Source of the DNA: Squalus acanthias
Lineage: Eukaryota
Assembly (NCBI GenBank): GCA_030390025.1
Contig: CM059449.1
Location: forward strand, 15,748,001 to 15,812,000
DNA length: 64,000 nucleotides
Reading direction: 5' to 3'
Position numbers and translations under genes: made by a program. The first letter of the stretch is position 1. The number at the start of each line of letters is the position of its first letter. The notes beneath the pieces were generated by a model that was not told the origin of the DNA, did no database searches, and saw nothing but the letters and a program-made list of their open reading frames with translations. Shown here one piece after another: positions 3,166-61,455 of the stretch.

Positions 3166-3168
3166 AAT

Positions 3169-3928
3169 GGGCTTGAAATGCGGGTCGGAGGCTTCCCGCG
3201 GGTGCAAGCCCCCAACCTGCACTTACCTAGCACGCCTGCCATTGTGCTGTGGGCCCGCGTGGGATTCCGATCCTGGGCCTCCTCCAGCTGCCGTGCGCAG
3301 TGCTTGCGTATCCCAGGGGCGCAGTTAGTTCGAAGCGTCCCCTGGGATCACGTGGGCCATGGAGAGCCAATCTTAACAGGGAATCTCCATTCATAGATTT
3401 GACAGGACGGCCTGTCAAATCTATGAATAGAGATCGGCCCCAAAACCTAACTAAAACTTCAAATAATTATTTTTTTAATCACATTTTTAAAATAACTATA
3501 AATTACATAAATTAACTACTTTAAACAAAAAATTAAATTTCTGCAAACATTAATTTCAGTTTTAACGGGGCTAAAAATAAACTTACCTTTCTTTAAAGTA
3601 TTTAAAAAAGATAAACCTGTGGAAAAAATGTTTAAATTTTATTTAATTCACCACTTACCTTGTTAAAAGCAGGCCTTGCGCCTGCTTTTTCCCCGCGCAG
3701 CTGCTGGGGACTTACCCTCACAGAGAAACCTGAAAAAAAAACGGAAGTCCGATGCGTGCGCGCTGCCTCTCCGGCGCACGCATTTGACTTCCGAACCCCT
3801 TCCTTCAAGGGAACGGAAGTTCCGGTTTCCAGCCCATGCGCAGTGCATGCGCGAAACCGGCACTTTCGTTGGGTCGACCGGTGAGTACACAGCGCGTGCT
3901 CACCCGTGGAGACCCGAATTTCTGGCCC
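3169..3928. mobile_element. Related Harbinger-like MITE
   Basis: TIRs gggcttgaaatgcgggtc / gacccgaatttctggccc, shared internal motif ctgggatcacgt...agagccaat, AT-rich core. Absent from the duplicate copy. Confidence 0.75.
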
Positions 3929-4454
3929 GTTTGCTACCCTTCCCTATATATGTTTGTGCATGCACCTGCTTATTTGTGTGTGGCTATATATATTTGCGAG
4001 TGTCTGTGAGAGTGTGTCTTTCTGTGTGTGCAGGTGTATGAATTCTGGAACTGTTAGGTTTCATTTCATGCCTTTCCTGGTTGGCTTTCTGTTGAATTAT
4101 AACTAATATTTTAGTCCCCAGCTCTATTCAAATTCGATTTTCAACTTGCCGCGTCTGTGCGTAAAACTGGCGTTTGGGATGGGCCGCACCTATGCTTTAC
4201 GCCTGTGTGGCAAGTTGAGAATCTACCCCACATCTTCAAGAAGAATAGTTGAGGCCGTCCAACCTCGTTTCTTCTTTAGATTTTTACATCCAACTGAGAG
4301 AACTTTTTACATGATAATCTACCTGGAAAATTAAACAAGAGGTCAGTAGGTTTAAAAATAACAAAAATAGCCCAAGTCATTGCGATACATATCCGATTTG
4401 TTCTTCTGCACTCAGAGCTGTCATAATTCCTCTCTATGAAGCATAGAAAAAGGA

Positions 4455-5476: not shown

Positions 5477-5775
5477 AATCATAGAGTCATACAGCACAGA
5501 AGGAGGTCATTCGACCCAATCTGCATGTGCCGGCTCTCTGAAAGGGCTACTAATTAGTCCCACTCCCCCCTGCTCTTTCCCCATATCCCTGAAATATTTC
5601 CCTTTTTAAGTATTTATCCAATTCCCTTTTGAAAGTTATTACTGAATGTGCTTCCACGGCCCTTTCAGGCAGTGTATTCCAGATCACAACAACTCACTGA
5701 GTAAATAAAAATTCTCCTCATCTCCCCTTGGCGTTTCTTTGCCAGTATCTTAAATCTGTGTCCACTGGTTACCGA
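5477..5775 (-). mobile_element. CR1 LINE 3' fragment
   Basis: CR1 3' UTR and tail with C-terminal ORF2 remnant. Confidence 0.8.
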
Positions 5776-5931
5776 CAGAATAATCAGACAGACCAATACT
5801 GAACTCTTGGTCAACGGATTATTCCTGGTAGATAAGAAAATTAACCAGATTATCAATTAAAATCAAATTAAATCGAAGGAGTAAGCGTTCGGAGTTTATT
5901 AAAAGTGACAGGTTGCTCACGTTTCTTTCTG

Positions 5932-6104
5932 TCACCCGCCTGTTTCATGGATCTCTGAGTAGAGCGGATCTGGACTGAAGCAAAAGAGGACATCAGAAAA
6001 TTTAGTCATCCAAAAGAATAAAATACATTAAAGAAAAGGAAACTGGCTTTTTTTTAAAAAGTAGATCAATGTAAACAGTTACCTGGTGGGTTGCTGAAGA
6101 GCGA
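5932..6104 (-). CDS. Two cytoplasmic-tail exons (6104-6083 and 5974-5932)
   Basis: 22-nt exon between ctcctcacag| and AG|GTAACT, then acceptor ttttgcttcag|. In frame they read VALQQPTSPDPLYSEIHETGG*. Confidence 0.72.
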
Positions 6105-9100
6105 CTGTGAGGAGCGAAAGACAAAGACAGAAAAATTAAAGAGCTGAAGTTATTGATTATATCTGCAAGAAGCAACTAAATTATTGCTATCGAATGAATT
6201 GAATCACATTTTGGGGGCAATTTTAACCAAACCCGCGGAGAAACGGACGGGATCGGGGGCAACGTTTTGAAGTCAAATGAGAGCAATATTGGACGGCTCT
6301 AAACCCGGCGTTCCACCCGATCCCCTGCGTTTCCCGCCCGGTGAATTAGGATAAAATTACCAGAGAATTTGCCAACCACATGGAATTCAGTAGAGGTACA
6401 ATTAATGCTGTTACCTCTCTTACGACGCTGGGTGATAACAACTATGACTATGATGATGATGATGATCAGGAGAGGCACCGCTACCGCTGCATAGACCAGT
6501 GGTGGGATCATTGGTGCGGAATCGCCGTGGCTGCACTCTCCACCACCTGTGTGTAAAGGTAAAGTTTCTTTTGTGAGACAGAGCAGTCAAGAGCAGGGCA
6601 ATGGTCACATTGAGATTGAGGATCAGCAAATGTGACACAGATTCCCAATCCCCTTTGACATGCGGGGCTATTTCACACTGGCATACATCAAACTAGGCCG
6701 CGGATCAAAACGCAAAATGTCACCAGTGGACAACTGGAGATATTCCCACCCTGGAAGTAACACTGGGGGAATTTTAATGTGGGGACGCTTAATGGGTTGG
6801 TGCCAGTTTCCTTTCTTTTAACTAGCGGGGGGTGGGGGTGGGGGTCGTGTGAGTCTGTTGACATAGATACATAGGAACAAGAGGAAGCCATTCAGCCCCT
6901 GCAGCCTGTTCCACCATTCAATGAGATCATGGCTGATCTGCGACCTAACTCCATATAACCGCCCTAATACCTTTGGTTAACAAAAATCTATCAATCTCCG
7001 GTTTAAAAGTCACAATTAATCTAGCATCAGTTGTCGTTTGAGGAAGAGTGTTCCAAACTTCTACCACCCTTTGTGTGTGTAGAAGTGTTTCCTAATTTCA
7101 CTCCTGAAAGGTCTGGCTCTAATTTCTACACCATGCCCCCTTAGTCCTAAACTCCCCAACCAGCGGAAATAATTTCTCTCTATCTATCATCTCTGTTCCC
7201 CTTAATATCTCGATAGTGTCGCTCCTCCCGCCCAGTGTACTTGAATTCACTAGACCCTGGAGATCCAATAGATCTTCAGCACGAACGGGAAAATCTTCCC
7301 CTCATATTTACTGGATGCTTAAGACAAAACCAACATCTGGAAATTAGACGTGCCGACACTGAGTGATCAACGTGGTTGTTCCGCGGACCCATCTGTGCAT
7401 TTTGTTGGCGATCAATGCTGTAATTTCCATTTACACACACTACTATATCCGTTACTGCCTCCACTTACAGAATGACAGTGAAATCTAACTTATCTTACAT
7501 GTGTTGTCCAGTTTATTCCCAATATTGGCACGCGGTGATTTCAAGGCTCACGTTTTGCTCGCATTACGGGGCTCCAGTCTTCGCCTCGCACGCTGTAACT
7601 GGGTTGACTACTTATCTATAGTCCTACCTAAAATTGTATACAGCAACTGAATGTCATTAATATCTCCTCCATTTATTTATTTTACAAGGTCATTCTCGGG
7701 ATCCGGGCGACGCTGGCCAGGCGAGCATGTTATTGTCCATCTCTGGTTGACCCCTTGAGAAGGTGGTGGTGGGCCGCCTTCTTCTTGAACCGCTGCAGTC
7801 CAGTGTGGTGAAGGTTCTCCCGCAGTGCTGTTAGGGAGGGAGTTCCAGGATTTTGGTCGGAACAGCGATACAAGTCCAAGTCAGGCTGGTGTGCGACTAG
7901 ACGGGGAAGTTGGAGGTGGCGGTGTTCCCATGCGCCTGCTGCCCTTGACCTATCTATTGGAGAATTTCCCTAAACGGCCAATATTACCCCTTAGAAAAAT
8001 CCCATATGATTGCGTGCAATTTCATTGATAAGAATATCTCTACCTATCCAAACTGACTGTGTTGACGCCGTTCCACGGTCACTCTAGTCCCGGGTCCCTC
8101 TGCTACAACGAATCCCACGAGCTGCACTTTGCAGAAATAGAACCCGGTATCTTCCGGTTTCAGCTGGGTTATTCTATTGGACGCGTTTCCCCACTGGCTG
8201 AAATCCTCTTCTCTTGCCCCGAACACCCTGCCTCTGTATTCCGCTGTATTGTTGGAAACTTCATTTCCCTGCTTGGTGCCTCGGTGCCACGTGTAGCTGC
8301 CGATTCCTGTGGGAACCTCATATCTACAGAGCAGGTTCGCTGTCTGTCCCGCGGTTTTGGTGAGAGATTGCGGGCTCTGAATTACGGTGATGTTTCCAAC
8401 AGCAACTGCTGCAAGTGTGTAAAACAGACCATTTATAAATTTACAGGGCACTTCTTTGCTTTAAAGCACGCCGTGGAAGGGCTGGTTTGAAGCAAATATT
8501 ATTTCGGAGGATTTTTGATAAGGTATTCCTGATCTTTAACTTGAGGGAATAAAAACAGAAAATACTGGAAACGCTCAGCAGGCCAGGCAGCATCTGTGGA
8601 GAAAGGAACAGAGTCAACGTTTCAGGTCGACGACTTTTCGTCAGAATTGGAAAAAGTTGGAGATGTAACAGGTCTTCAGCAAGTGTCGGGGCAGGGAAAA
8701 GGGGGAAGGGGAGGAAAGAACAAAAGGGAAGGTCTGTGATAGAGTGGAAGGCAGGAGTGATTAAATGACAAAAGTGATGATGGTACAAGTAAAAAGGAGA
8801 TGGTAATGGGATAAGTAAAGAAACAAAAGATGGGTCTACAAGAGGTTTAAATGATTAACTTGAGGGATATTGGTGCTGGGGCAGGAGCGCCTTTGGTTTT
8901 TGGGCGCACTCCTAGGTCAAGTATAGAATGGATCTCGTACAAAGTACCTCTGTCCCGTTCCAAATAATAAGCATTCACTTTAATTTCAGTTTTCCCGATA
9001 TGCTTTCTGTGCTGCCCGCCCGTCTCATTAACACTTTGAGCGAGGGTGTGAAATGGGCAATCTCGAATTAAACGCCTTGCCCGATGTTCGCTTCCATTTG

Positions 9101-12100
9101 GGGGTCATTTTAACTTTGGTTGCTAAATGGGCGAGATCGGGTCGGCTGCCTGAAATTAAAATCGGGACAGGTGTACAACGGGCGGCTGAGCCGATGTCGC
9201 CCTTTTCAGTCGGTCGCACAAATTCAAAATCACCTCCAGGAAGTGAGGAGAAGTTTAATCTTATTAATCTTATCAGATAGGAGCTAAACCCCAGCGACCT
9301 TCTCTCTATTAATCAGCGGTGACTGGACAATATGCAAAATTCAAAGATATTATTAATGATCAAAATAATGAAACGGGATAAATGTTACATGTCGCGACAT
9401 TACAAATTGGATGAATGCTTTCCCACTTTGGGTGTACCTCGTAAAACCGCCAATACCTCTTTACAAATAGTTTATGATTTTGCTACAACAACGGATCAGA
9501 GAAAGGAGTCAATGCATTTGTGACCACGTTCCGCGCGGCAATCAGCGCAACTCTTGCCCTGTGCTGATAACTAGAGAAAGGTTGTATCCAGTTAAACTAC
9601 TAGAAATAATATGAATTGAACAAAAAAAAAGTCATGCCCCCTGGAAACGGGTGTTTATATGAACACAGCCAGCACTGCAAATATTCACTCCAGGACTGCT
9701 GTGGATAGAGAATATTAGCATTTTTGGTAGATGTAATATCATAGAATCATAGAATAGTACAGCAGAGAAGGAGGCCATTCAGCCCATCGAGTCTGCGCCA
9801 GCTGTTTCGAAGAGCAATCCAGTTAGTCCCACTCCCCCTTCTCTTTCCCCATATCCCCGAAATATTAATATTTTTCTCCTTAAAGTATTTGTCCAAATCC
9901 CTTTTGAAGGCAACTATTCAATCTGTATTCACCACCCTATCAGGCAGAGTACTAGGGCAATCTGTACTTCAGGGAGCAACATACATTGTGCTCTCCTGGA
10001 CCAGATACAGTGGACCAGATACAGTAAACCTCGTTACCCGAGAGCTGATCCGTCTCTCACGTTTAGCTCTCTCTATCTCTCTCTGTCTTCCTCAGTCTCT
10101 CTTTCTCTCTCACACACACACGCACGATTGGAACCCATTTCTCTATCTCTCTCTCTCTTTTCCTATTCCTATCCATCACTTCTTGATTTAACTCGTCTAC
10201 CCTCCCACTATTTCCAACCTTGATGCTGTCCTATGCCATGGGCCATGGGCTCTTCACTTAAATGCCCCAATTCAAAATAAGCAACCTGGAAAGCGTTAGC
10301 TTCTCTGTGGCGAGCCCTGGTTAACTGCGAGATTGATTATATTACCAGGGCATTAATCATTACCACGGCGCTGAGATATTAAGATGGTTAATCTCGCGTC
10401 TATGAGAACGTCCGCACAGACCAGATGTTTTGATGATTTGCAGGCGAGCTGGTCATGAATATAAAATTGGTTAAATCCACAATCTGGTGCTGTGATCAGC
10501 AAATATGGGATATCGGAATAAGATTTAACCAGATACACATATAAGTAAGAAAAAACATAGATGGGAGGACATCGCTATGGGTATTTAATATCTAATTAAG
10601 TCATAGAATATTTCATTAAAGTCAGTATGAAATAATGGTCATCAATGACAACCGTGGGAACAGTTTCTCTCTATCTACTCTGTCCAGACCCCTCATGATT
10701 TTGAACACCTCTATCAAATCTCCTCTCAACCTTCTCTGCTCTAAGGAGAACAACCCCAGCTTCTCCAGTCTATCCACGTAACTGAAGTTCCTTATCCCCG
10801 AACCATTCTCGTAAATATTTTCTGCACCCACTCTAAGGCCTTCACATCCTTCCTAAAGTGCAGTGCCCAGAATTGGGCAAAGTACTCCGGTTGAGGCCGA
10901 CGCAGAGTTTTATAAAGTTTCATCATAACATGCCTTGCTTTTGTAATGTATGCCTCTATTTATAAACCCCAGGATCCCATATGCTTTATATACCGCTTTC
11001 CCAATCTTGAATGATTTGTGCACATATACCCCCAGGTCTCATTGTTAATGCACCCACTTTAGGATTGCACCCTTCAGTTTATTTTGCCTCTCCTTGTTCT
11101 TCCTACCAAAATGTATCAATTCGCACTTTCCTGCGTGAAATTTAATATGCCACGAGGGGTGAAGCTCAAATTAAAGTATCTTTCTCTATCATGAAATGAT
11201 GTTACTGGGTGTCCATTTTTGTTAGAATAAATTCGGATCAATGTATCCGTACATGAAATACCGCAACCTGTCAATTAACGTTGTACAATTATTATGAATT
11301 GAGCCCAGATTGATCGCTCACTGTGGGGAAGGATCTCATTTCCAAGGGTCACACTTTAGACGTTAACTAGTTAACAGTAAGAAGGGAAGTCAGGCGGAAA
11401 CTGTTCGCCTATAGAGTAAGAGATTTGTGGAACAAGTTACTGGAGACGGCCGTGGGAGTGGGCAGTACAAATAGATTCAAGATACAACATGTGTGTTTCT
11501 GGAAAAAAAGAAGCCTCGATCTGTCAAACAGGGGCAGGTTTTTTTGGACATAATGATCTCTTGTGTCCCACAATTTTCAAGCTGCTATGAAGAATTTAAA
11601 ATGCTGATTGATCCATCAATCATTGAGCTACAAACCGGTATTCAGCTGTCATTACATTGGGTCCTTTTCCCGTTTCTCAACGGAACTTTGGGAAATTGCA
11701 GTCCATAATCAGATTGAACAGCTGTATACATTCGAAACCTTTATGGTGCCAAAATTAGAGGCAATTGTCACTTTATAAAGGCGGATCTGTTGTAGAAGGC
11801 GGCTCACCAACACCTTCTCAATGGTAACTAGGGATGGGCAATAAATGCTGGGAGACGCCCACATCCCAGGAACGAATAAAAAATATAGAAGGCATGTTTC
11901 CTTTTATATGGTGCGGGGATCCAACCGTACAGTACTCTGGTAAGATGGCATCTTGAGTATTGTGTTTATTTCTGGTCAGTCAGGCTCAAGGGAGACATGC
12001 AAGTCCCGGCGTTGGCGTGAACGCTAGCCTGTTCCCTCGTGTTCTAGTGCTAGGTTCTGAGAGAAACAAAAGACTAGAAAAGCTCGGATTCATTAGCTTT

Positions 12101-15066
12101 GTAAAAAGGACGAACATAGTTGCGCTAACAGAGATATGTAAGGTGCCAAGCAAGAAAATCAAGCGATAATGCGAAGTACTAAAACAACAAATTAAACGCT
12201 GGAAAAACTCAGCAGGCCAGGTACTATTATACAATGCGAAGTACTATTTTGAGATAAACCTCACCTTCAGGTGGTGGGTTGGGATTTGGGGGAGTAGCCT
12301 GAAGCTCGTGTATTTACATTCATAAAGCACCGCGCCTTGAGTAGTTGGGTTCAAGTCAGACATATGACACTTTCAGGATGTTAATTGTCGACCAATTGTT
12401 CCCGATGTACTTTGAAAGTGATATTGACACACAGACACAATTCACAAAACCGAACTGAAATCACTTTGCATAGCATATGTACAGCCATACTAATGTCAAA
12501 ATATTGATAAATTCTAAAAACGAACTCTGATCTTTTCTACTCACTGTCAGTTATTATAAGTTGTGTTCCTGTCCCGCTTCCTTTCCCAACCGCCGCAATT
12601 TCCACCTCGCAGTAGTAAAAATCCGAGTCCATTGTCATTAAATTGATGATTTCAAGGAAAGCCATTCTTTCGGCAAATAAATTCGGCCCTGACTTCGTTA
12701 TCCGGCTCTGATAGAAAGGATTCCGAACCGACACTTCCATGTTTTGTGAGGCCCGTCTCCAAACAACCTGTCCAACAGTAATATTCGCTTCAAAAGTGCA
12801 GTTCAGCTGCACCGATCCTCCTTCTGTTACATTAATGGCATCTGGGGACTGGAACACTCTGATTCCACTCATCAACCCATTGTCTAGAGTATAAATGGAA
12901 CAATGCAATCTGTCAATAGCTACCTACAGAATTACAGACCAGTATTTAAACATAGAATGGTTACAGCACAGAAGGAGGCCATTCGGCCCGTCGAGCCCGT
13001 GCTGGCTCTCTGCAAGAGCACTTCAGCCAGTCCCACTCCCCCGCCCTTTCCCCGTAGCCCTGCATTTGTTTTCCTTCAGGTACTTATCCAACTCACCTTT
13101 GAAAGCCACGATCGAGTCTGCCTCCACCACCGTTTCAGACAGTGTATTCCAGTTACTAACCACTAGCTGCGTAAAAAGCTTTTTCTCATTTCGCCTTTGA
13201 TTCTTTTGCCAATCTGTGTCCTCTAGTTCACAACCCTTCCGCCAATGGGAACAGTTTCTCTCTATCTACTCTGGCTAGACCCCTCATGATTTTGAACACC
13301 TCTATCAGATCTCTTCTCAACCTTATCTGCTCTAAGGAGAACAATTCCGACTTCTCCAGTCTATCCACGTAACTGAAGCTCCTCTACCCCGAACCAGTCT
13401 CGTAAATCTTTTCGTCACCCTCTCTGAGGCCTTCACATCGTTCCTAAAGTGCGGTGCCCAGAATTGGCACAATACTGCAGTTGAGGCCGAACCAGTGTTT
13501 TGTAAAGGTACATCATAACTGCCTTGCCTTCGTACTATATGCCACTATTTATGAAGCCCAGTATCCTGTATGCTTTGTTAACCGCTTTCTCAACCTGCCC
13601 TGCCACCTTCAATGATTTGTGCACATATACCCCCAGGTCTCTCTGTTCATGCACCCACTTTAGGATCATACCCTCTAGTTTATTTTGCCTCTCCTCGTTC
13701 TTCCCACCAAAATGTATCAGTTTGCACTTTCCTGCGTTAAATGTCATCTGCCACGAGGGGCGAAGCTCAAATTAAAGTATCTTTCACTATCACTAATTGA
13801 CATTACTGGGTGTCCTTTCTTTGTTCGAATAAATTGGGATCAATGTATCCGTACATGAAATACCGCAACCTGTCAATTAACGTTGTACAATTATTATGAA
13901 TTGAGCCCAGATTGATCGCTCACTGCGGGGAAGGATCTGATTTCCAAGGGTCTCACTTTAGACGTTAACTAGTTAGCTGTAAGAAGGGAAGTCAGGCGGA
14001 AACTATTCGCCTATAGAGGAAGAGATTTGTGGAAGTGGCCGTGGGAGTGGGCAGTACAAATAGATTCAAGAGACAACATGTGTGTTTCTGGAGAAAGAAG
14101 CATTGATCTGTCAAACAGGGACAGGTTTTTTCTGACATAATGATCTCTTGTGTCCCACAATTTACAAGCTGCTATGAAGAATTTAAAATGCTGATTGATC
14201 CATCAATCATTGAGCGACAAACCGGTATTCAGCTGTCATTACATTGGGTACTTTTCCCGTTTCTCAACGGAACTTTGGGAAATTAAAGTCCATAATCAGA
14301 TTGAACAGCTGTGTACATTCAGAACTTTATGGTGCAAAAATTAGAGGCAATTGTCACTTTATAAAGGCGGATCTGCTGTATTTCCACGCACTTGGTTTTC
14401 TTTGCAAAACTATTGACATAATATAATCACCACTTCCCAACGCAGTTCTATTTCACCGTCCTACTGGGGGCAGATTTCACTTCTGTCATCTTTAATAATT
14501 TAAGAAGGAAACCTGTCCTTTATATTACCTCAAGTGTAAGCATGAAAACTTTGGAAATGTGTTGAATATGAATCGTTTGCTAATGGAATAAATTGTGTCG
14601 AACGCAAAGACGTTGAATTGTCGAGTAGAAGGTATAATGTCAGATAATTCCATGTGTAACACAGTCGGTTAGGAGTCCGTGAGTGAATTTATTTCCATAA
14701 GTACATTTTAGTAGGCCCTGTTAATTATGTTAATTTTATAATGCAAATTCACCGCATCTGCATAGAGGAGAACGTTAATGTGTATAATATATATATATAA
14801 AGTTTCCCGAAAGATAAAATCCTTATACCGTTGAAATGGTGGATTCAATGCAAAGTAACACAGCAAAATAAAATAAAACAATTTATTTTACACACTGTAA
14901 CTTCGTTATATATAAGGTCTGCATAAGAAAACAACCTGCCCAACCAAATAACCGTTAGTCTTAATAAATATAGAATTAAAATGTGAACATCAGAAGATAG
15001 CGACTCACCGACATGCAAGAGTATGGTCAGTAAATTGAAGAACATCCACATGTGAATAGTTTGCAT
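5932..15066 (-). CDS. NCR3 (NKp30)-family Ig-superfamily receptor with two tandem V(J)-type domains; exons 15066-15009, 12883-12545, 8408-8058, 6546-6415, 6104-6083, 5974-5932 (945 nt, 314 aa + stop)
   Basis: All six exons have GT/AG sites and compatible phases (1,1,1,1,2). Product is leader MQTIHMWMFFNLLTILLHV, V1, V2, stalk/TM, then a tail ending ...PTSPDPLYSEIHETGG*. V2 (IGSYTW...GNEVSNNTAEYRGRV...YFCKVQLVG...GPGTRVTV) closely parallels human NKp30 (IGSVTW...GKEVRNGTPEFRGRL...YVCRVEVLG...GNGTRLVV). Confidence 0.82.
6212..6361. mobile_element. Short palindromic MITE
   Basis: Imperfect inverted repeats ggggcaattttaacc...ggataaaattacc. A similar element lies at ~9100-9236. Confidence 0.5.
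6415..6546 (-). CDS. Stalk/transmembrane exon of the NCR3-like gene
   Basis: Acceptor ttacacacag|, donor G|GTAACA, 132 nt. Encodes (S)GGECSHGDSAPMIPPLVYAAVAVPLLIIIIIIVIVVITQRRKR, a hydrophobic helix plus basic stop-transfer. Confidence 0.85.
6862..7212 (-). mobile_element. CR1 LINE 3' fragment
   Basis: catagatacataggaaca...gccattcagccc tail and a WNTLP-type remnant. Confidence 0.8.
8058..8408 (-). CDS. IgV domain 2 exon (VJ-type, NKp30-like)
   Basis: Acceptor cacttgcag|cag (NAGNAG), donor A|GTCAGT, 351 nt, phase 1-1. Motifs VIQSP, LLC, TW, EDTGFYFC and GPGTRVTV. Confidence 0.88.
8550..8860. mobile_element. Penelope-like repeat fragment (related pieces at ~2570, 12190, 51905, 54325)
   Basis: Recurrent motif aaaacagaaaatactggaaacgctcagcaggccaggcagcatctgtggaga. 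Family assignment from recall only. Confidence 0.5.
9737..10638. repeat. Inverted segmental duplication, block B copy 1 (matches ~25428-24551)
   Basis: ORF 9889+ versus 25281-, with shared unique sequence and a shared CR1 tail. Confidence 0.9.
10655..11790. repeat. Direct duplication copy X' (CR1 fragment plus unique intron sequence)
   Basis: Same CR1/unique junction (tgccacgagggg.gaagctcaaattaaagtatc) and same downstream sequence as 13248-14378. Confidence 0.9.
12545..12883 (-). CDS. IgV domain 1 exon (VJ-type, NKp30-like)
   Basis: Acceptor tatactctag|, donor A|GTGAGT, 339 nt, phase 1-1. Motifs VFQSP, LNC, W, DSDFYYC and J-like GTGTQLII. Confidence 0.9.
12950..13795 (-). mobile_element. 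CR1 LINE 3' fragment
   Basis: FNAGKCKLIHFG...QRDLGVYV...LGFIN and the CR1 tail. Confidence 0.85.
13248..14378. repeat. Direct duplication copy X (its CR1 extends to ~12950)
   Basis: Aligns with 10655-11790. Confidence 0.9.
15009..15066 (-). CDS. Leader (signal peptide) exon of the NCR3-like gene
   Basis: AAAATG start, hydrophobic 19 aa, then a phase-1 donor G|GTGAGT at 15008. Confidence 0.75.
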
Positions 15067-15896
15067 TTTGATTCTTGCTCCGCAGGACACTACGAGCTAA
15101 CATCTGACCCGCAGCGTCCCGAAGTGCTGTTAAGTGTAACAAACGTCCCACACCAGACGCTGAATTATATGACGAAACCTTCTGGTGGTTTAACACCACA
15201 CAGATGAACTCTGCTCACTACGCACGTTTTCCAATTGTAGTCGGATACGTCATATTTTAAGAATATTAAACATAGAAGCACTACTTTAACATTACACAAG
15301 CGGTACATTGAAACAAAGGAATAACGCCTCGCAGTTCAGTTTCATCCTTCACTAATTTCAGTGGGTGTTTACGAACCCGAGGGATTGAAACTCATCTTGC
15401 ACCTGTTTAAACAATGACAAACTCATTAGAATGAAGTTAGAGGGCGCAGAGTTGGTAAATGAGAACTGGAGATAGTACTCGGATTTGCTTTAAATGGGTA
15501 GTGCCTGGCAATTGTCTGAAACATGAACATGTGTTGGCCACATGTCACGGAATGATGCTGAGCCCAGTTGTGTAAATCCAGCAGCATGCCTTTCACGTTC
15601 AGAGCGCTTTCGACGGGAACTACATGATCAGTGCTTTTTGCTCCTTATTCTAGCCCAACCTTTTTTAAAAGAACGTGTACTTTTAAGAGTTATCTGGCGC
15701 AAGAAACTGTAATGCTGCAGTAGGACTACCAGGGCCTAAACTGGGATAAATCAACACTGTAGTTACAGAAAGGGGAGATCACCTGGAAAAAGAACAGCAG
15801 GGTCTAAGCTCAACTTCCTTTGGGAGCGGAAAACGGGCAGTGGCGGATTGGCAGCCTGTGATAAACCCCACCCGATTTACCTTTTCATATCAATGG

Positions 15897-24035: not shown

Positions 24036-25429
24036 TGACAGAAACATCCACGACTCTCTGCATCCTATCCCGTGGTCAGTTACGTACCCAGGTTACAGGT
24101 GAAGCCATGAATCTACCCCGCGTGTGAGTATCTGCGCGAACTGTCCTTGAGAGAGAATGCGAGTGTGTGTGTGTGTGTGTGTGTGTGTGAGCGAGAGAGA
24201 GACAGAACCATGTGCGAGAGAGATAACTGCGGTTATATATACAGCTTGCAATTCATTTTTTTTCCATTCCCTCACATCCGGACTCTGACTCAGGTTCACT
24301 CTCCCACTGCATTACTCAAATATTCCTGTCTGTACAATACCTGAATATCTTTTCTGAAATGATATCGCCGCCGAAAGGGGGAATGAATTGGGCTGCAGTT
24401 ACCTGGGCATTCGCTATGTTCTCCTGTAAGCTTATGTCTGACACATCAGGTCCATTCAGGAATATGGGGTGGATTTTCAAATTTGTGCCTGGGCGTAAAA
24501 CTGGCGTTGCGGAGCGGCCGACTGTTATTGAAACGGACTGATTTTAATTTCCATTATTTCATACTGAATTTAATGAAATATTGTATGTCTTAATTAGATA
24601 TTAAATACCCATAGCGATGTCCTCCCATCTATTTTTTTTCTTATTTATATGTGTATCTGGTTAAATCTTATTCCGATATCCCATAGTTGCTGATCACAGC
24701 ACAAGATTGTGGATTTCACCCATTTTATATTCATGACCAGCTCGCCCGCAATTCAAAAAACATCAGGTTTGTGCGGACATTCTCATAGACGCGAGATTAA
24801 CCATCTTAATATCTCAGCGCCGTGATAGTGAATTATGTCCTGGTAATATAATCAATCTCGCAGTTAAGCAGGGCTCGCCACAGTGAAGCTAACACTTTCG
24901 AGGTTGCTTATTTTGAATTGAGGCATTTAGGTGAAGAACCAATCGCCCATGGCGTAGGACAGCATCAAGGTTGGAAATAGTGGGAGGGAAGACGAGTTCA
25001 ATCAAGAAGTGATGGATAGGAATAGGAAAAGAGAGAGAGAGAGAAATGGGTTCCAATCGTGCGTGTGTGTGAGAGAGAGAAAGAGAGACTGAGGAAGACA
25101 GAGAGAGATAGAGAGAGCTAAACGTGAGAGACTGATCAGCTCTCGGGTAACGAGGTCTACTGTATCTGGTCCAGGAGAGCACAATATCTGTTGCTCCCTG
25201 AAGTATATATTGCTCTAGTACTCTGCCTGATAGGGTGGTAGATACATAATCAATAGTAGCCTTCAAAAGGGAATTGGACAAATAATTGATGAAGAAAAAG
25301 ATTGCAGGGATATGGGGAAAGAGAGAGGGGAGTGGGACTAACTGGATTGCTCTTCGAACGAGCCGGCGCAGACTCGATGGGCTGAATCGCCTCCATCTCT
25401 GCTGTACTATTCTATGATTGTATGATAAT

Positions 25430-26012
25430 GGCCCGTATTTTCCGCTCGCAGGCCTCCCACGGGCGGAGGCCTGCGATCTGGAAAATTTGTGCCCTTACCT
25501 GAGGGCTCCCAGGAGGCGCACAGTTGCGATGCTGGGCGTCTCTAAACTGCCGATGTGCAGGGCCCACGTATCCCAGAGGCGCAGGTAGGACGCAGAGTCC
25601 CTGGGATCACGTCCGCCATGGAGAGCCAATCAAAGAAGGGAATCTCCCTTCATACATTTGACAGGAAGACCTGTCAAATATATGAATGGAGATCACCCCC
25701 GTAAACTTTAAATACATTTTTAAAAAATTCACATTTTTAAAATGACTTGAAAGTACAATAAATTAATTATTTTAAACAAAACTTAAAAAAATTTCAAAAA
25801 AATAATTAAAGTTTTTTACAGGGCTAAAAATAAACTTACCTTTTTTAAAGTATTTTTAAATGATAAATCAGTGGATATTTAAAAAAAAAACTTTTTTCAA
25901 CTCTTATCCTGGTAAAAGCATGCCTTACCAGGCGCAAGAATTATAAGGGTTTTCTGCGGGCGGAGGGACTCCAAAAACGGAACTCCCCATTCGCAGAGGC
26001 CCTTCTCCGGGG
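25430..26012. mobile_element. Third, right-truncated copy of the same MITE family
   Basis: Starts ggcccgtattttcc, has the same internal motifs, and ends at the deletion junction. Confidence 0.7.
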
Positions 26013-28569
26013 CAGCTGGAGTGCAGACGAACAAATCGGGTATGTAGCACAATGACTTGGGCTATTTTTGTTATTTTTAAACCTACTGACCTCTGGTTTA
26101 CTTTTCCAGGTAGATTATCATGTAAAAAGTTCTCTCAGTTGGATGTAAAAATCTAAAGATGAAACGAGGTTGGACGGCCTCAACTTTTCTTCTTGAAGAT
26201 GTGGGGTAGATTCTCAACTTGCCACACAGGTGTAAAGCACAGGTGCAGCCCATCCCAAACGCCAGTTTTACGCACAGACGCGGCAAGTTGAAAATCGAAA
26301 TTCAATAGAGCCGGGACTAAAATATCAGTTATAATTCAACAGAAAGCAAACCAAGAAAGGCATGAAATGAAACCTGACAGTCCCAGAATTCAAACACCTG
26401 CACACACAGAAAGACACACTCACACGGACTCTCGCAAATACATATAGCCACACACAAATAAGCAGGTGCATGCACAAACATATATTGGGAATGGAAGCAG
26501 AGTGGTTATGTTACTGGACTAGTAATCCATCTAGACCTGGACTTATGATCCGTGCGACGTGAATTCAAACCCCACCACAGCAACTAGAGCAATGTAAATT
26601 TAATTATATAAATCTGGAATAAAAACCTAGCATCAGTAATGGTAACATGAAACTATCGGATTGTCGTAAATACCCATCTAGTTCACTAATATCCCTTAGG
26701 GAGGAAATCTGCCGTCCTTTCCTGGTCTGGCCTATATGTGACTCCAGAACGATAGCAATGTGGTTGACTCTTACCTGTCCTCTAAAATGGCCACTCAGTT
26801 GTAAAAAGCCGCTACGAAAAACAATGTGGGAGTGCCTTGACTGCAGCGGTTCAAAAAGGCGGCTCTCCACCACCTTCTCAAGGGCAACTAGGGATGGGCA
26901 ATAAATGCCGGCCTTGCCAGCGACGCCCACATCCCATGAAAGAATAAAAAAGCAGGGAGATACACAGGAACATTAAAATAGACCCCAAGATAGGGGCACC
27001 CAGGCAAACAAACGCACACATGCAAAAATACACCTACTTTGATAAGTCGAGATAAGGAGGAAATCTGAAGCCGTAACAGAAAATGCTGGATATGCAAAGT
27101 AGGTCAGTCAGCACCTGGAGGAGAAAACACAGGGTAACCGGTGGGCTGAGACTTTGCCTTCGAACGGAAAGTGCTCCTGAACAGTTGTTCCCAAATGTTA
27201 ATGTGACTTTCCCAGATGCTGACTGACCCACTGCTCCTGAATTCATTAAGTGTGAATTGTTCTAAATGCATGAATTTTAACATTATAATGTTGTGTTTAT
27301 TAGGTCGACTGACCCGTTGCTCCTGAATTCACTAAGTGTGGCTTGTGAATCGCTTCTAATGCATGGATTTTAACAATACTCGTAACGATGTGTTAATTAG
27401 GTTGACTATTTCCCTTGCTTGTTACTTAAATCGTGCAATCTTTGACACGCTGAAATATATTCAAAAGGACAGGAATATTTAGGATGGCGCGATCTATCCT
27501 ATTTAATGAAACAATATTTGATAGGTGGAGTCATATTCTAATTATATGTAGAATGTTCACTGATTTGAATAATATTCCATTGAAACTGCACAACATCTGG
27601 TGCGCTGGGTTTGAGGCCCTACGCTATATTCAGTTTACAATATTTTATTCAACACTGAAACACTTTCATCTCAATAGAGAGAGGGAGATGAGAAGTTGCA
27701 AACGTCACGCTGAATCTTCAAGAGAGCAATCAAACTGAGCGCCCTGTGAAGCGAGCAGCGGTGCTGTACGCTTCGGTGAAGTAAGCGGAGCCGATACATT
27801 CCACCCCAATGATGAGACGTGCCCCCCCCCCTCCCCCCACCCCCCACCCCACCACCGATGGACAAGTAGTGGAATTTCCGCAGAGTTGTCCCGATCTCCC
27901 GCCGTAACTTGGGCGGAAGCTCGGGGGTTCTGTGGGATCTTCAACGGCGGATGATTGGTGAACTCTCCATGAGAATTTCCAGGCGAATGTTTTGTCCTCT
28001 AACTTAGTGAGTGAGGTTTATCCACACATAATTCAGTAACAAGGGCTTGGAATCTCCAATACTTTAACATTAGTCTCTTTAGTGTTAGTTGTGAACATTT
28101 AACACATTTTTATGAAATGTATTAGTCCCCTATTTTTAGGGGAGTGTTATCCTCGAAAATAAACAGATTTATGCCACTATTAAAATGAAAACCAACATGT
28201 TGAGCATTCATACACGTTACTGTTCACTCAGCCTTGTCTCATCACATAACTCCTTACATTTCATCATAATCCTATAGAGTTTTTGATATTTTCGTCATAA
28301 AAGTTCTTCTCAGTTGACCCATGTCAGGTTGTATGTTGATTTTCCGTTGTACCTTCTTTAAAATTAATGTTTTATGTTGAACTCAAGGGGGGCGGGCGAA
28401 ATGACTTCTGCGGGTTCTCCCGCTCTCCTGTGGTAATGTCGGCGGAAGATCGGCGGAACTCAGAAGAAGCGCGTAATAGCTAAAGCGGTGTTCTGCCGAA
28501 CTTCCAGCGTACTCATTGCACGAGATCGGCAGAACCACCTCCCCCAGAAGTGAATACTTGGAAGGACGT

Positions 28570-55339: not shown

Positions 55340-58300
55340 GGGAGAGAGAAAATCGGAGGGGGGAGAGAGAGAGAGATTGGTGGAGAAGGAGAGAGAGAGA
55401 CTTGGGAGAGAGAGAGAGAGAGAGAGACTGGGAGAGAGCGAGAGAGAGAGAGACTGGGAGAGAGCGAGAGAGCGACTTTGGGCGAGAGAGAGACAGACTG
55501 GGAAGAGAGAGACTGGGAAGAGAGAGATTGGGGAGAGAGAAAGAGACTGTAGAGAGAGGGAGACTGGGGAGAGAGCGAGAGAGACTGGGGAGAGAGAGAC
55601 TGAGGGGAGAGTGAGAGAGACAGGGAAGAGAGAGATTGGAGAGAGAGAGAGACTGGGGAGAGAGGGAGACTGGGGAGACAGCGAGAGAGACTGGGGGAGG
55701 GAAAGACGGGAAGAGAGAGAGACTGGGGAGAGAAAGAGAGAGACTGGGGGAGAGATAGAGACTGGGAGAGAGCGAGAGAGCGACTGGGGGAGAGAGAGAG
55801 AGACTGGAGAGAGAGAGACTGGGGGTGAGAGTGAGAGAGAGACTGGGAGAGAGCGACTGGGGGAGAGAGAGAGAGACTGGGTAGAGAGAGAGACTGGGGG
55901 AGAGAGTGAGAGAGAGACTGGGAGAGAGCAAGAGAGAGAGAGACTGGGAGAGAGAGAGAGTCTTGGAGGAGAGAGAGAGACTTGGGGCAGAGAGAGAGAG
56001 ACATGGGGGAGAGAGAGAGAGAGACTAGGTGGGAGATGGAGAGAGAGAGTGGGAGAGAGCGAGAGAGCGACTGGGGGAGAGAGAGAAAGAGAGACTGGGG
56101 AGAGAGTGAGAGAGAGACTGGGGAGAGAGAGAGTCTTGGAGGAGAGTGAGATAGAGCGAGAGAGCGACTGGGGGAGAGAGAGAAAGAGAGACTGGGGAGA
56201 GAGTGAGAGAGAGACTGGAGAGAGAGAGACGGGGGTGAGAGTGAGAGAGAGAGACTGGGAGAGAGCGAGAGAGAGAGTCTTGGAGGAGAGAGAGAGACTT
56301 GGGGGAGAGAGAGAGAGACTGGGGAGAGAGTGAGAGAGAGACTGGGAGAGAGCGAGAGAGAGAGTCTTGGAGGAGAGAGAGAGAGACTTGGGGGAGAGAG
56401 AGAGAGACTGGGGAGAGAAAGAGAGAGACTGGGGGAGAGAGAGAGAGAGCGAGAGAGCGACTGGGGGAGAGAGAGAAAGAGAGACAGGGGAGAGAGTGAG
56501 AGAGAGACTGGGGGAGAGAGAGAGTCTTGGAGGAGACAGCGAGACTTGGGGGAGAGAGAGAGAGACTTGGGGGGAGAGAGAGAGAGAGAGACTGGGTGGG
56601 AGATGGAGAGTTCTAGGAGAGAAAGAGAGAGACTCCGGGAGAAGGACAGACTGGGGAGAGAGAGAGACTGGGGAAATAGTGAGAGAGACTGGGGAGAGAA
56701 AGACGGAGAGAGAGAGAGAGAGAGAGAGACGGAGAGAAAGAGAGAGAGAGACTGGGGAGAGAAAGAGAGAGACTGGGGGAGAGAGAGAGAGAGTGGGAGA
56801 GAGCGAGAGAGCGACTTTGGGCGAGAGAGAGACAGACTGGGAAGAGAGAGACTGGGAAGAGAGAGATTGGGGAGAGAGAAAGAGACTGGGGAGAGAGGGA
56901 GACTGGTGAGAGAGCGAGAGAGACTTGGGGGAGAGAGAGAGAGAGAGAGAGAGAGACTGGGAGAGAGAGAGAGACTGGGAGAGAGCGAGAGAGAGAGAGA
57001 CTGGGAGAGAGCGAGAGAGCGACTTTGGGAGAGAGAGAGACAGACTGGGAAGAGAGAGACTGGGAAGAGAGAGATTGGGGAGAGAGAAAGAGACTGGGGA
57101 GAGAGCGAGACTGGTGAGAGAGCGAGAGAGACTTGGGGGAGAGAGAGAGAGAGAGAGAGAGAGACTGGGAGAGAGAGAGAGACTGGGAGAGAGCGAGAGA
57201 GCGACTTTGGGCGAGAGAGAGACAGACTGGGAAGAGAGAGACTGGGAAGAGAGAGATTGGGGAGAGAGAAAGAGACTGGGGAGAGAGGGAGACTGGGGAG
57301 AGAGCGAGAGAGACTGGGGAGAGAGAGACTGAGGGGAGAGTGAGAGAGACTGGGAAGAGAGAGATTGGGGAGAGAGAGAGACTGGGGAGAGAGGGAGACT
57401 GGGGAGACAGCGAGAGAGACTGGGGGAGGGAAAGACGGGGAGAGAGAGAGACTGGGGAGAGAAAGAGGGAGACTGGGGGAGAGATAGAGACTGGGAGAGA
57501 GCGAGAGAGCGACTGGGGGAGAGCGAGAGAGACTGGAGAGAGAGAGACTGGGGGTGAGATTGAGAGAGAGACTGGGAGAGAGCGAGAGAGCGACTGGGGG
57601 AGAGAGAGAGACTGGTGAGAGAGAGACTGGGGGAGAGAGTGAGAGAGAGACTGGGAGAGAGCGAGAGAGAGAGACTGGGAGAGAGAGAGAGAGAGCCTTG
57701 GGGGAGAGAGAGAGAGACTTGGGGGAGAGAGAGAGAATTGGGGGAGGGAGAGAGGGAGACTGATGGAGAGAGTGGGTGATTGGGGAGAGAGAGAGACTGG
57801 GCAGAGAGAGAGACTGGGGAGAAAGCGAAAGAGATGGGAAGAGATAGATTGGGGAGAGACAGAAACTGGGGGAGAGAAAGACAGGGAGAAAGAGAGAGAG
57901 AGACGGGGAGAGAGAGAGAGACTGGGTGGGAGATGGAGAATTCTAGGAGAGAAAGAGAGAGACTCCGGGAGAGGGACAGACTGGGGAGAGAGAGAGACTG
58001 GGGAAAGAGTGAGAGAGACTGGGGAGAGAAAGACGGAGAGAGAGAGAGAGACGGGGATAGAGAGAGAGAGACTGGGGAGAGAAAGAGAGAGACTGGGGGA
58101 GAGAGAGAGAGAGAGTGGGAGAGAGCGAGAGAGCGACTGGGGGAGAGAGATAAATAGAGACTGGGAAGAGAGTGAGAGAGAGACTGGGGGAGAGAGAGAG
58201 TCTTGGAGGAGAGAGAGAGACTTGTGGGAGAGAGAGAGAGAGCTGGGGGAGAGAGAGAGAGAGACTGGGTGGGAGATGGAGAGTTCTAGGAGAGAAAGAG

Positions 58301-58375
58301 AGAGACTCCGGGAGAGGGACAGACTGGGGAGAGAGAGAGACTGGGGAAATAGTGAGAGAGACTGGGGAGAGAAAG

Positions 58376-58406
<31 letters not shown>

Positions 58407-61400
58407 CGGAGAGAGAGAGAGAGACTGGGGAGAGTAAGAGAGAGACTGGGGGAGAGAGAGAGGGAGAGACGGGGAGAGAGCGAGAGAGCGACTGGGGGAG
58501 AGAGAGAAAGAGAGACTGGGGAGAGAGTGAGAGAGAGACTGGGGAGAGAGAGAGCGAGCGGGGGAGAGAGAGAGTCTTGGAGGAGAGAGAGAGACTTGGG
58601 GAAGAGAGAGACACCTGGGGGAAGAGAGAGAGACTGATGGAGAGAGGGAGTGACTGGGGTGAGAGAGAGACTGGGGGAGAGAGAGCGACTGGGGGGAAAT
58701 CGAAAGAGATGGGAAGAGATAGATTGGGGTAGAGAGAGAAATTGGGAGAGAGAAAGACGGGGAGAAAGAGAGAGAGAAGGAGAGAGAGAGAGAGACTGGG
58801 GTGGGAGATGGAGAGATCCTAGGAGAGAAAGAGAGAGACTGCGGGAGAGGGAGAGACTGGGGAGAGAGAGAGACTGGGGAAAGAGTAAAAGAGACTGGGG
58901 AGAGAAAGACGGAGAGAGAGAGAGAGAGAGACGGGGAGAGAGAGAGAGACTAGGGAGAGAAAGAGAGAGACTTGGGGGAGAGAGAGAGAGCGACTGATTG
59001 AGAGAGTGAGTGACTGGGGAGAGAGAGAGACTGGGGAGAGAGAGAGACTGGGGAGAGAGAGAAAGAGATGGGAAGAGATAGATTGGTGGAGAGAGAGAGA
59101 CTGGGGGAGAGAGCGAGAGAGACTGGGGAGAGAAAGACGGGGGAGAGTGAGAGACTGGGGTGGGAGATGGAGAGAAACTAGGAGAGAGAGAGAGACTGCG
59201 GGAGAGAGAGACTGGGGAGAGAGAGAAACTGGGGAGAGAGCGAGAGAGACCGGAGGGAGAGAAAGGCGGGGAGAGAGAGAGAGACTGGGGAGAGGAAGAG
59301 AGAGACTGGGGAAGAGAGTGTGAGAGAGACTGGGAGAGAGCGAGAGAGAGACTGGGGTGAGAGAGAGAGAGAGAGACTGGGGAGAGAGAGACTGGGGTAG
59401 AGAGAGAGACTGGGGAGAGATAGAGAGAGGCTGGGAGAGAGCGAGAGAGAGACTGGGGGAGAGAGAGAGACTTGGAGCAGAGAGAGAGAGACTTGGGGGA
59501 GAGAGAGAGAGTTTTGGGGGAGAGAGAGAGAGACTTGGGGGAGAGAGAGAGCGACTGGGGGGAGAGAGAGACTGGGGAGAGAGAGACTGGGGAGAGAGAG
59601 AAAAAGATGGGAAGCGATAGATTGAGGGAGAAAGGGAGACTGGTGGAGAGTGCGACAGAGACTGGCGGAGAGAAAGATGGGGAGAGAGAGAGACTGGGGA
59701 GAGAGAAAGAGACTGGGGTAGGAGATGGAGAGATACTGGGAGAGAGAGAGACTGGGGGAGAGAGAGAGAGAGACTGGGGGTGAGAGAGAGAGAGAGACTT
59801 GGAGAGAGAGAGACTGGGGGTGAGAGAGAGAGAGACTGGGAGAGAGAGCGAGAGAGAGACTTGGAGAGAGTGAGAGAGAGAGACTTGGAGAGAGTGAGAG
59901 AGAGACTGGGGGAGAGAAAGGCGGGGAGAGAGAGAGAGACTGGGGAGAGGAAGAGGGAGACTGGGGAAGAGAGTGTGAGAGAGACTGGGAGAGAGCGAGA
60001 GAGAGACTGGGGTGAGAGAGAGAGAGAGACTGGGGAGAGAGAGACTGGGGTAGAGAGAGAGACTGGGGAGAGATAGAGAGAGGCTGGGAGAGAGCGAGAG
60101 AGAGACTGGGAGAGAGAGAGAGACTTGGAGCAGAGAGAGAGAGAGACTTGGGGGAGAGAGAGAGAGTTTTGGGGGAGAGAGAGAGAGACTTGGGGGAGAG
60201 AGAGAGCGACTGGGGGGAGAGAGAGACTGGGGAGAGAGAGACTGGGGAGAGAGAGAAAAAGATGGGAAGCGATAGATTGAGGGAGACAGGGAGACTGGTG
60301 GAGAGTGTGACAGAGACTGGCGGAGAGAAAGATGGGGAAAGAGAGAGACTGGGGAGAGAGAAAGAGACTGGGGTAGGAGATGGAGAGATACTGGGAGAGA
60401 GAGAGACTGGGGGAGAGAGAGAGAGAGACTGGGGGTGAGAGAGAGAGAGAGAGACTTGGAGAGAGAGAGACTGGGGGTGAGAGAGAGAGAGACTGGGAGA
60501 GAGAGCGAGAGAGAGACTTGGAGAGAGTGAGAGAGAGACTGGGGGAGAGAAAGGCGGGGAGAGAGAGAGAGACTGGGGAGAGGAAGAGAGAGACTGGGGA
60601 AGAGAGTGTGAGAGAGACTGGGAGAGAGCGAGAGAGAGACTGGGGTGAGAGAGAGAGAGAGACTGGGAGAGAGAGCCTTGGAGAGAGAGAGAGAGAGAGA
60701 CTGGGGGTGAGAGAGAGAGAGACTTGGAGAGAGAGAGACTGGGGGTGAGAGAGAGAGAGACTGGGAGAGAGAGCGAGAGAGAGACTTGGAGAGAGTGAGA
60801 GAGAGACTGGGGGAGAGAGAGACCGGGAGAGAGAGCGAGAGAGAGACTTGGAGAGAGAGAGAGAGAGAGACTGGGGGTGAGAGAGAGAGAGAGACTTGGA
60901 GAGAGAGAGAGACTGGGGGTGTGAGAGAGAGAGACTGGGAGAGAGAGCGAGAGAGAGACTTGGAGAGAGAGAGAGAGAGAGACTGGGGGTGAGAGAGAGA
61001 GAGACTGGGAGAGAGAGCGAGAGAGAGACTTGGAGAGAGAGAGAGAGAGACTGGGGGTGAAAGAGAGAGAGACTGGGAGAGAGAGCGAGAGAGAGACTTG
61101 GAGAGAGAGAGAGAGACTGGGGAGAGAGAGAGAGAGAGAGAGACTGGGGGTGAGAGAGAGAGAGACTGGGAGAGAGAGCGAGAGAGAGACTTGGAGAGAG
61201 AGAGAGAGACTGGGGGTGAGAGAGAGAGAGACTGGGAGAGAGAGCGAGAGAGAGACTTGGAGAGAGAGAGAGAGAGAGAGACTGGGGTGAGAGAGAGAGA
61301 GACTTGGAGAGAGAGAGAGAGAGACTGGGGTTGAGAGAGAGAGAGACTGGGAGAGAGAGAGAGAGAGAGAGAGAGACTGGGGGTGAGAGAGAGAGAGACT

Positions 61401-61455
61401 GGGAGAGAGTGAGAGAGAGACTTGGAGAGAGAGAGAGAGAGAGAGAGAGACTAGG
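55340..61455. repeat. GA-rich compound mini/microsatellite ((GA)nCTGGG units), ~6.1 kb, with higher-order repeats
   Basis: Seen directly. All long ERER/SLSL ORFs here are repeat artefacts. Confidence 0.97.

Follow-up and report, generated by a model that had tools for sequence, protein, structure and literature searches.

Gene structure and family identity

The stretch of Squalus acanthias DNA analysed here (the window; 64,000 nucleotides (nt), contig CM059449.1, G000:C26:15748001-15812000) carries on its minus strand a gene of the shark NCR3 (NKp30) family with two V domains, V1 and V2. The two domains belong to different single-V subtypes, labelled here A (QTT61903-like) and B (QTT61898-like), and we interpret the gene as a hybrid of the two that is probably in decay; the homologues discussed are shark proteins. 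The gene had been proposed from the letters of the DNA alone (the original prediction). Its six minus-strand exons, with AG/GT ends throughout, are phase-consistent and join to 945 nt that encode 314 amino acids and a single stop:

15066-15009, minus strand: leader exon L1, 19 codons plus 1 nt; subtype A (QTT61903-like)
12883-12545, minus strand: V1 exon, NKp30-type VJ domain, subtype A
8408-8058, minus strand: V2 exon, NKp30-type VJ domain, subtype B (QTT61898-like)
6546-6415, minus strand: exon for the stalk and an uncharged transmembrane (TM) segment, subtype B; the stalk reads GGEC
6104-6083, minus strand: 22-nt cytoplasmic exon, AG/GT in all 17 copies
5974-5932, minus strand: PLYSEI exon, the last of the original prediction; family donor at 5940, read-through stop at 5934-5932

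Judged from the sequence, this six-exon architecture is real and not a product of chance, the V1-V2 join being predicted. The V1 donor (GTGAGT) and the V2 acceptor are family-standard and in phase over a 4.1-kb intron, and a search between V1 and V2 for a leader belonging to V2 found none. The exons of the original six-exon model stand, but the model is incomplete, having missed the tail exons 4433-4393 and 1360-1253. A further candidate exon at ~5824-5773 was dropped, as its donor is not conserved among paralogues, scores 5/9 and the exon has no protein homologue. Sequencing contigs from three runs of one study (shares 0.03–0.07), which we guess to be RNA, mainly cover repeats over 5700-8500; one contig of 158 nt equals 8280-8437 without mismatch and is unspliced across the V2 acceptor. 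Of the 17 joints over this stretch 15 are shown, and none of them connects two exons; the V1-V2 intron and the last exons lie outside it.

Both V exons exceed the Pfam V-set cut-off, and the best solved relative by sequence is human NKp30 for each (E 4e-12 and 4e-10). The AlphaFold model of V2 [predicted local distance difference test (pLDDT) 91.7] has human NKp30 as its best fold match [PDB: 3noi, TM-score 0.85, root-mean-square deviation 1.7]. In a tree of 91 V-domain rows, from which 14 rows of the V-exon set had been dropped beforehand, V1 groups with nurse shark QTT61903 (clade 94/69) and V2 with QTT61898 (clade 100/99), each inside a clade of copies from its own genome. The alignment has few columns, long branches are flagged and human NKp30 is absent from our trees; the V1 clade loses resolution in a second, smaller tree. 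The gene is, on this evidence, a member of the shark NCR3 family with two NKp30-type V domains, in agreement with the original prediction of two divergent VJ domains in one phase-consistent frame; the phylogeny with shark NCR3 proteins that it proposed places both domains inside the family.

The CD28/CTLA-4 family is characterized by a PPP-type loop in complementarity-determining region 3 (CDR3) and by a conserved stalk cysteine that forms a disulfide-linked dimer. The PPP-type CDR3 loop is absent from V1 and V2, and CD28, CTLA-4 and PD-1 do not occur among the matches listed, whether by PDB sequence (60 and 36) or by fold. Matches to Pfam PF15910 with MYPPPY-type loops do exist in the genome, on other contig(s) and outside the NCR3 clade. 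Three V domains with PPP-type loops and PF15910 matches (L211-L213; G000:C5:145.19 Mb, C3:111.88 and 112.07 Mb) served as outgroups; we presume them to be CD28/CTLA-4-like from these matches and from the MYPPPY-type motif. A clade of V1 and V2 with the two C3 candidates is rejected by the approximately unbiased (AU) test (p 1e-51), a grouping that also forces V1 and V2 together and is to that extent not independent. A separate set of single-exon VJ-type V domains at G000:C6:57.5-76.9 Mb (L214-L217, L219-L221) likewise falls outside the NCR3 clade.

Parental subtypes and probable origin of the two-V layout

V1 is 62–71% identical to single-V proteins of Heptranchias, Heterodontus and Scyliorhinus (four matches), and V2 is 65–67% identical to Heterodontus XP_067865395 and nurse shark QTT61898. 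Subtype A comprises nurse shark QTT61903, Heptranchias XP_067829800, Heterodontus XP_067865593, Scyliorhinus XP_038673028 and Stegostoma XP_048376288; further relatives of subtype B are Chiloscyllium XP_043533718 and GCC38504 and the first half of Scyliorhinus XP_038671257. GenBank entries MT914154-914161 are given as nurse-shark NCR3 genes in PMC12227049, and QTT61898 and QTT61903 appear to derive from Kinlein 2021. Orthologues of either subtype in other sharks have one V domain, their own leader, their own TM segment and their own tail. Since the parental subtypes are single-V genes in other sharks, the two-V form is likely to be derived and lineage-specific, and not primordial. An origin of V1 and V2 by intragenic duplication is ruled out by the 91-row tree and by the AU test, which rejects V1 and V2 as one clade (p 2.9e-5; the group was named after the first tree).

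The window gene shares its leader, V1 and an uncharged TM segment with subtype A; it differs in having two V domains and in lacking that subtype's own stalk (with a cysteine in five of six), TM segment and tail. With subtype B it has in common V2, the uncharged TM segment and the same tail exons, which in the long forms end in two motifs of the immunoreceptor tyrosine-based inhibitory (ITIM) type; subtype B differs in its single V domain, its own leader, a stalk mostly without cysteine (4/5) and, in long forms, an intact path to the ITIM exon. A stalk cysteine is present in five of six full-length subtype-A orthologues versus one of five subtype-B proteins of other sharks. As originally predicted, the TM segment has no charged residue, and the receptor would not couple to adaptors with activation motifs (ITAMs) through it. 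Because deposited nurse-shark NCR3 proteins of both subtypes have uncharged TM segments, this is not a new trait.

Leader L1 resembles the leaders of Heptranchias XP_067829800 and Scyliorhinus XP_038673028, and the ~285 nt upstream of it are 69–70% like those of two intact subtype-A genes. Across 12545-15350 the V1 exon is 92–93% like these two genes, while promoter, leader and intron reach only ~70%; gene conversion of the V exon is likely.

The rearrangement is marked by four features of the window:

9737-10638, no strand assigned: intron segment normally just below V2's own leader; an inverted second copy (90%) lies at 24551-25427
10655-11794, no strand assigned: rearrangement junction in intron 2, an 89% copy of the intron-1 segment 13246-14380
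24383-24425, plus strand: leader L2, originally that of the V2 subtype, here on the strand opposite to the gene
27678-27784, plus strand: terminal exon, with a frameshift, of an inverted partner gene that lacks V, TM and most tail exons

The junction in intron 2 bears the marks of inverted and direct duplications. The inverted subtype-B remnant extends over 24383-28569 on the plus strand and consists of the leader, half of the 41-nt exon and the frameshifted last exon. Within the 1.23 Mb examined, subtype-A TM segments occur only at 13.47 and 13.64 Mb. TM-less V1 copies number 14; ten stand head-to-head with a V2 gene, facing away from it, and four stand in front of a V2 exon, namely the window gene, its twin at 17.13 Mb and a pair at 15.08 and 15.22 Mb. 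The four tandem copies, which represent two lineages ~10% apart and have kept this layout, share the intron-2 junction, which the ten head-to-head copies lack, and in all four the subtype-B leader has been flipped onto the other strand (in the window at 24383). The reading frame survives the joining of exons because all V exons are phase 1/1.

The two-V gene is therefore likely to be a derived hybrid, with leader and V1 from subtype A and V2, TM and tail from subtype B, formed by what we infer to have been an inversion or inverted duplication. In the order that we envisage, a leader-V piece of a subtype-A gene that had left TM and tail behind would have landed head-to-head with a subtype-B leader, a layout that is still seen, and the inversion or inverted duplication would then have placed the fragment before a V2 exon stripped of its leader. 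A DNA tree of the leader/V1 regions separates the four tandem (82) and ten head-to-head copies (100) as sister groups; it is silent on which layout is older, and part of its alignment may be non-homologous to the two intact subtype-A genes. On the V2 side, the two tandem lineages do not come together in the tree.

An A-type followed by a B-type V domain in one protein was not found among the matches examined (2, 4 and 21, and 140 new ones from the best 150 of 1839), which is weak evidence. Multi-V NCR3-type proteins are common (the predicted proteins P0030, P0033 and P0037 carry two to three such domains), and runs of two to four in-phase V exons occur in the same cluster at C26:13.68, 14.77, 14.89, 15.03, 15.19, 15.41 and 15.53 Mb, where other multi-V NCR3 genes are likely. 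Two database models (P0008, XP_078075208; P0013, XP_038671257) fuse two neighbouring NCR3 genes, V-TM being followed by a second leader or V, and yield false two-V proteins. In the open-access literature searched, neither this hybrid nor a pairing of shark NCR3 genes was described; Kinlein 2021, Flajnik 2012 and Ohta and Flajnik 2015 may cover tails, TM segments and pairing.

Cytoplasmic tail and likely paired genes of the cluster

Four further features concern the tail:

5900-5895, minus strand: AATAAA, 32 nt past the read-through stop; a candidate polyadenylation signal for a short-tailed form
4433-4393, minus strand: 41-nt family cytoplasmic exon, outside the original prediction; donor AT
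3166-3930, no strand assigned: high-copy interspersed repeat with a cryptic exon at 3729-3659, only in this copy and its twin
1360-1253, minus strand: 108-nt terminal family exon, outside the original prediction; FQYVTL and VLYASV, open frame

The stop at 5932 with which the original model ends is a read-through of the family splice donor at 5940. Joined at the family sites, the tail exons give an open frame that matches the tails of Heterodontus, Scyliorhinus and Chiloscyllium, whose proteins also contain the 41-nt exon, and that ends in LQYATL and VLYASV. By the definition of an ITIM as (S/I/V/L)xYxx(I/V/L) in a cytoplasmic tail (PMC12151841), both of these family motifs qualify and PLYSEI does not. 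In the window's terminal exon VLYASV fits the definition and FQYVTL, to which the first motif has changed, does not; the donors on the way to this exon read GC and AT. Both distal tyrosines are kept in all four long-tailed orthologues; that of YSEI is kept in 18 of 20 paralogues and missing from two of the four other-shark orthologues that have the exon, which speaks against YSEI as a conserved signal. The family would, from its motifs, be of the ITIM-type inhibitory kind. The inhibitory character originally suggested thus holds for the family; it would rest on two distal tyrosine motifs overlooked at first, and not on YSEI. In subtype B, ligand binding would let kinases phosphorylate the two distal ITIM-type tyrosines, which would recruit SHP-1/2. 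A short-tail isoform probably also exists in the family, because 17 of 20 copies have an AATAAA past the read-through stop and nurse-shark QTT61898 has its C-terminus exactly there; use of an intronic poly(A) site would yield a short tail that ends behind YSEI.

The gene belongs to a large cluster. A search with V2, in which 150 of 200 candidates were scored, yields 68 matches, every one of them on C26 in the interval 13.47-17.14 Mb, and the 1.23 Mb examined hold at least 72 distinct V exons (75 tblastn rows), 61 of them open and 11 broken. The cluster also holds three leader-V2-V2 genes, and five of 17 V2-TM units have no visible leader. Five V2 copies, 82–86% identical to the V2 of the window, have a different leader, an arginine at the start of the TM segment and a short tail:

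C26:14973536, 15430449, 15641860, 15732745 and 17109293: complete activating-type genes, each with its own leader, a V2-type V domain, an Arg-TM segment and a short tail

The nearest of the Arg-TM genes stands tail-to-tail ~15 kb left of the window. Three of the five have a small insertion at the TM end, and in the 91-row tree their V domains fall within the inhibitory V2 copies. Their leader is resembled by that of GCC38509, a Chiloscyllium model with no annotated TM segment. The Arg-TM copies are likely to be paired activating partners of the ITIM genes and would present nearly the same V domain as inhibitory subtype B on an Arg-TM segment; the two kinds may form an old activating/inhibitory pair whose V exons have been homogenised within shark lineages.

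KIR, SIRP alpha/beta and Xenopus XMIV likewise place near-identical V domains on inhibitory and activating tails, and combine birth-and-death duplication with hybrid genes and many broken copies. The shark cluster would resemble these paired systems and differs in being built on NKp30-type VJ domains. Tentatively, and with more doubt than confidence, the cluster may be viewed as a KIR-like paired system on NKp30 that rearranges into inhibitory receptors of two specificities, in which the window copy would have switched its tail by splice-site loss, possibly with an exon from a mobile element. Human NKp30 has a single V domain, a TM arginine that binds CD3zeta/FcRgamma and no signalling tail (PMC6514059). 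Among solved structures it is the best sequence match of both V domains of the window gene, but its layout of one V domain and a TM arginine is that of the five Arg-TM copies and not of the window gene, which has two V domains and an uncharged TM segment. Exons like those of class I genes of the major histocompatibility complex share the scaffold (16 of 50 matches) at a distance of 15–23 Mb; the best-scoring matches are on small contigs, and this is not tight linkage. A 6-kb degenerate GA-rich tandem array occupies 55363-61450 of the window.

Probable decay of the window copy and alternative readings

Several lesions are private to the window copy and its twin among the paralogues. The V2 donor is GTCAGT, with an in-frame stop just behind it, where 25 of 27 copies have GTAAGT; the donor at 5940 is GC and that at 4393 is AT (GT in 18 of 20 copies at either site). 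In the core of V2 an isoleucine has become asparagine, at a column where 76 of the 78 NCR3-type V domains have isoleucine or leucine and all 13 other domains compared are hydrophobic; it aligns with a leucine of the E strand of NKp30, which we take to be a buried hallmark position, and asparagine there would hamper folding. The GGEC cysteine is a private point change from serine; of 17 copies, two have the cysteine and 15 the serine. One codon later a third paralogue also carries a cysteine, and the Scyliorhinus orthologue has one nearby; a cysteine-linked dimer is possible and would not be a conserved trait, so that the stalk cysteine of the original prediction is present and the CD28/CTLA-4-like dimer built on it is not borne out.

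Because the donor at 5940 is weakened to GC and the one at 4393 destroyed, family sites no longer bring the ITIM exon within in-frame reach. At the thresholds chosen, a single in-frame path to it remains, from the GC donor to the cryptic exon 3729-3659 of the repeat at 3166-3930, of which 38 other full-length copies are listed (92–95%) and which has strong splice sites in the sense of the gene. The last intron holds a second insertion at 1400-2139. Loss of copies is frequent in the family; eight of 17 V2-TM units are intact throughout, nine are broken somehow, and so are 11 of 72 V exons. Compared with the hybrid at 15.08 Mb, the proportions of nonsynonymous and synonymous differences (pN/pS) are 0.066/0.065 for V1 and 0.070/0.087 for V2, on few sites, with no sign of purifying selection. 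A separate count for the window copy gave 12 nonsynonymous and 3 synonymous changes; several paralogues are similar, and pN/pS neither singles out this copy nor decides the matter. We consider the window copy to be a decaying hybrid gene of the NCR3 family, with a probability of about 0.6. Its products would be the short-tailed form of the original model or a soluble form arising by read-through at V1 or V2.

A number of observations weigh against decay. There is no stop or frameshift in any exon, the two cut-off exons included, and the proximal promoter region is retained. Leader and V1 are intact in four of four tandem versus three of ten head-to-head copies, a weak point as the four consist of two pairs of almost the same sequence. 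Given the poly(A) signal in 17 of 20 copies and the end point of QTT61898, a short tail may be normal for an isoform of this family, and the GC donor with the repeat-derived exon would restore the frame to the ITIM exon. The pLDDT of V2 is high (91.7), though insensitive to single changes, and a pN/pS near 1 also fits diversifying selection. The stalk cysteine, too, has counterparts in one of five other-shark subtype-B proteins and, one codon later, in the third paralogue.

On several of these points the gene could be a functional short-tailed or soluble variant in which selection fixed the splice changes, giving a short tail with one YxxI motif, perhaps as a cysteine-linked dimer, or a secreted two-V decoy that competes with the paired receptors for ligand. 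All three donor changes shorten the product, there is a poly(A) signal past the tail stop and one 376 nt past V2, every frame is open, QTT61898 has the identical end point, and, with a stalk cysteine in five of six full-length subtype-A orthologues, the new cysteine could restore a V1 dimer. We regard this as unlikely, since the asparagine in the V2 core, the loss of the YSEI tyrosine in two of four orthologues and the nine broken sister units of 17 point the other way, and the same changes are expected under relaxed selection. Alternatively the exons could be two unlinked fragments, a leader-V1 orphan, from which read-through would release no more than one secreted V domain, and a leaderless, dead V2-TM-tail gene. 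Ten of the 14 TM-less V1 copies are orphans, seven of these broken; read-through at V1 meets a stop and, 574 nt on, AATAAA; five of 17 V2-TM units lack a visible leader, and XP_078075208 and XP_038671257 likewise fuse two neighbours. The family-standard, in-phase V1 donor and V2 acceptor with no leader in the 4.1-kb intron, and a layout kept in four copies of two lineages ~10% apart, make this rather improbable. GC donors usually require a near-perfect match to the consensus. This bears on a rescued two-V, two-ITIM receptor, in which the GC donor at 5940 would join the repeat-derived exon in place of the dead 41-nt exon and reach the terminal exon in frame. This is the only path in frame at our thresholds; the cryptic exon has pyrimidines at 12 of the 13 positions ahead of its acceptor, and its donor scores 9/9. 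The same two copies hold both the repeat and the dead donor, and the terminal exon is open and retains VLYASV. The GC donor, however, matches the consensus at 7/9 and has a rival in a poly(A) signal at a distance of 40 nt, the acceptor at 4433 is intact, comes first and reads through without ITIMs, and FQYVTL lies outside the ITIM definition (PMC12151841); rescue is accordingly quite improbable.

The view first taken of the gene, as a primordial two-V receptor forming CD28/CTLA-4-like dimers with a costimulatory or inhibitory role, is largely refuted by the orthologue trees, and we give it hardly any credence. The two VJ domains, stalk cysteine, uncharged TM segment and Yxx-hydrophobic motif are all present, and reviews count NKp30 in the CD28 family (PMC6514059, PMC3972465). 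The G strand of CD28/CTLA-4/PD-1-type V domains carries GxG (PMC11599192), and a GxG V domain and tail tyrosine motifs are shared with the window gene; the differences are its lack of a PPP-type CDR3, its separate grouping and a cysteine that is private and not conserved. The hybrid origin from single-V subtypes, the absence of CD28, CTLA-4 and PD-1 from the listed PDB sequence and fold matches, and the position of the genome's own PF15910 matches on another contig, outside the clade, contradict this view; no database protein among those examined has the A+B architecture. With the stalk cysteine private and the CD28/CTLA-4-like V domains of the same genome outside the clade, a costimulatory role of that type is not supported, and with the two-V form a hybrid of single-V subtypes, the finding does not inform on how CD28 or the V domains of antigen receptors arose.

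Decay would apply to the window copy and its twin. The twin locus (C26:17126005-17151350) is 98.6% alike over 16.8 kb with all lesions in common, and may have arisen by recent duplication or represent the second haplotype, set in tandem. The sister hybrids at C26:15079292-15091361 and 15219482-15232288 have leader, V1, V2, TM and full tail, with GT at every donor, no break in the frames and the two distal tyrosine motifs in place; as predicted from their exons they would be two-V, two-ITIM inhibitory receptors and are better working candidates than the window copy.

Alone, the window gene matters little, being likely a decaying hybrid in a fast-turning cluster, and it cautions that two-V models in such clusters call for read support. 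It does offer a traceable case of a two-V receptor assembled from two single-V genes. The cluster has the wider meaning, in that NKp30, a lone activating receptor in humans, would be represented in the shark by a large paired activating/inhibitory family, and its pairs with the same V domain on an Arg-TM segment or above two ITIMs may give a handle on how shark NK-like or T cells are restrained.

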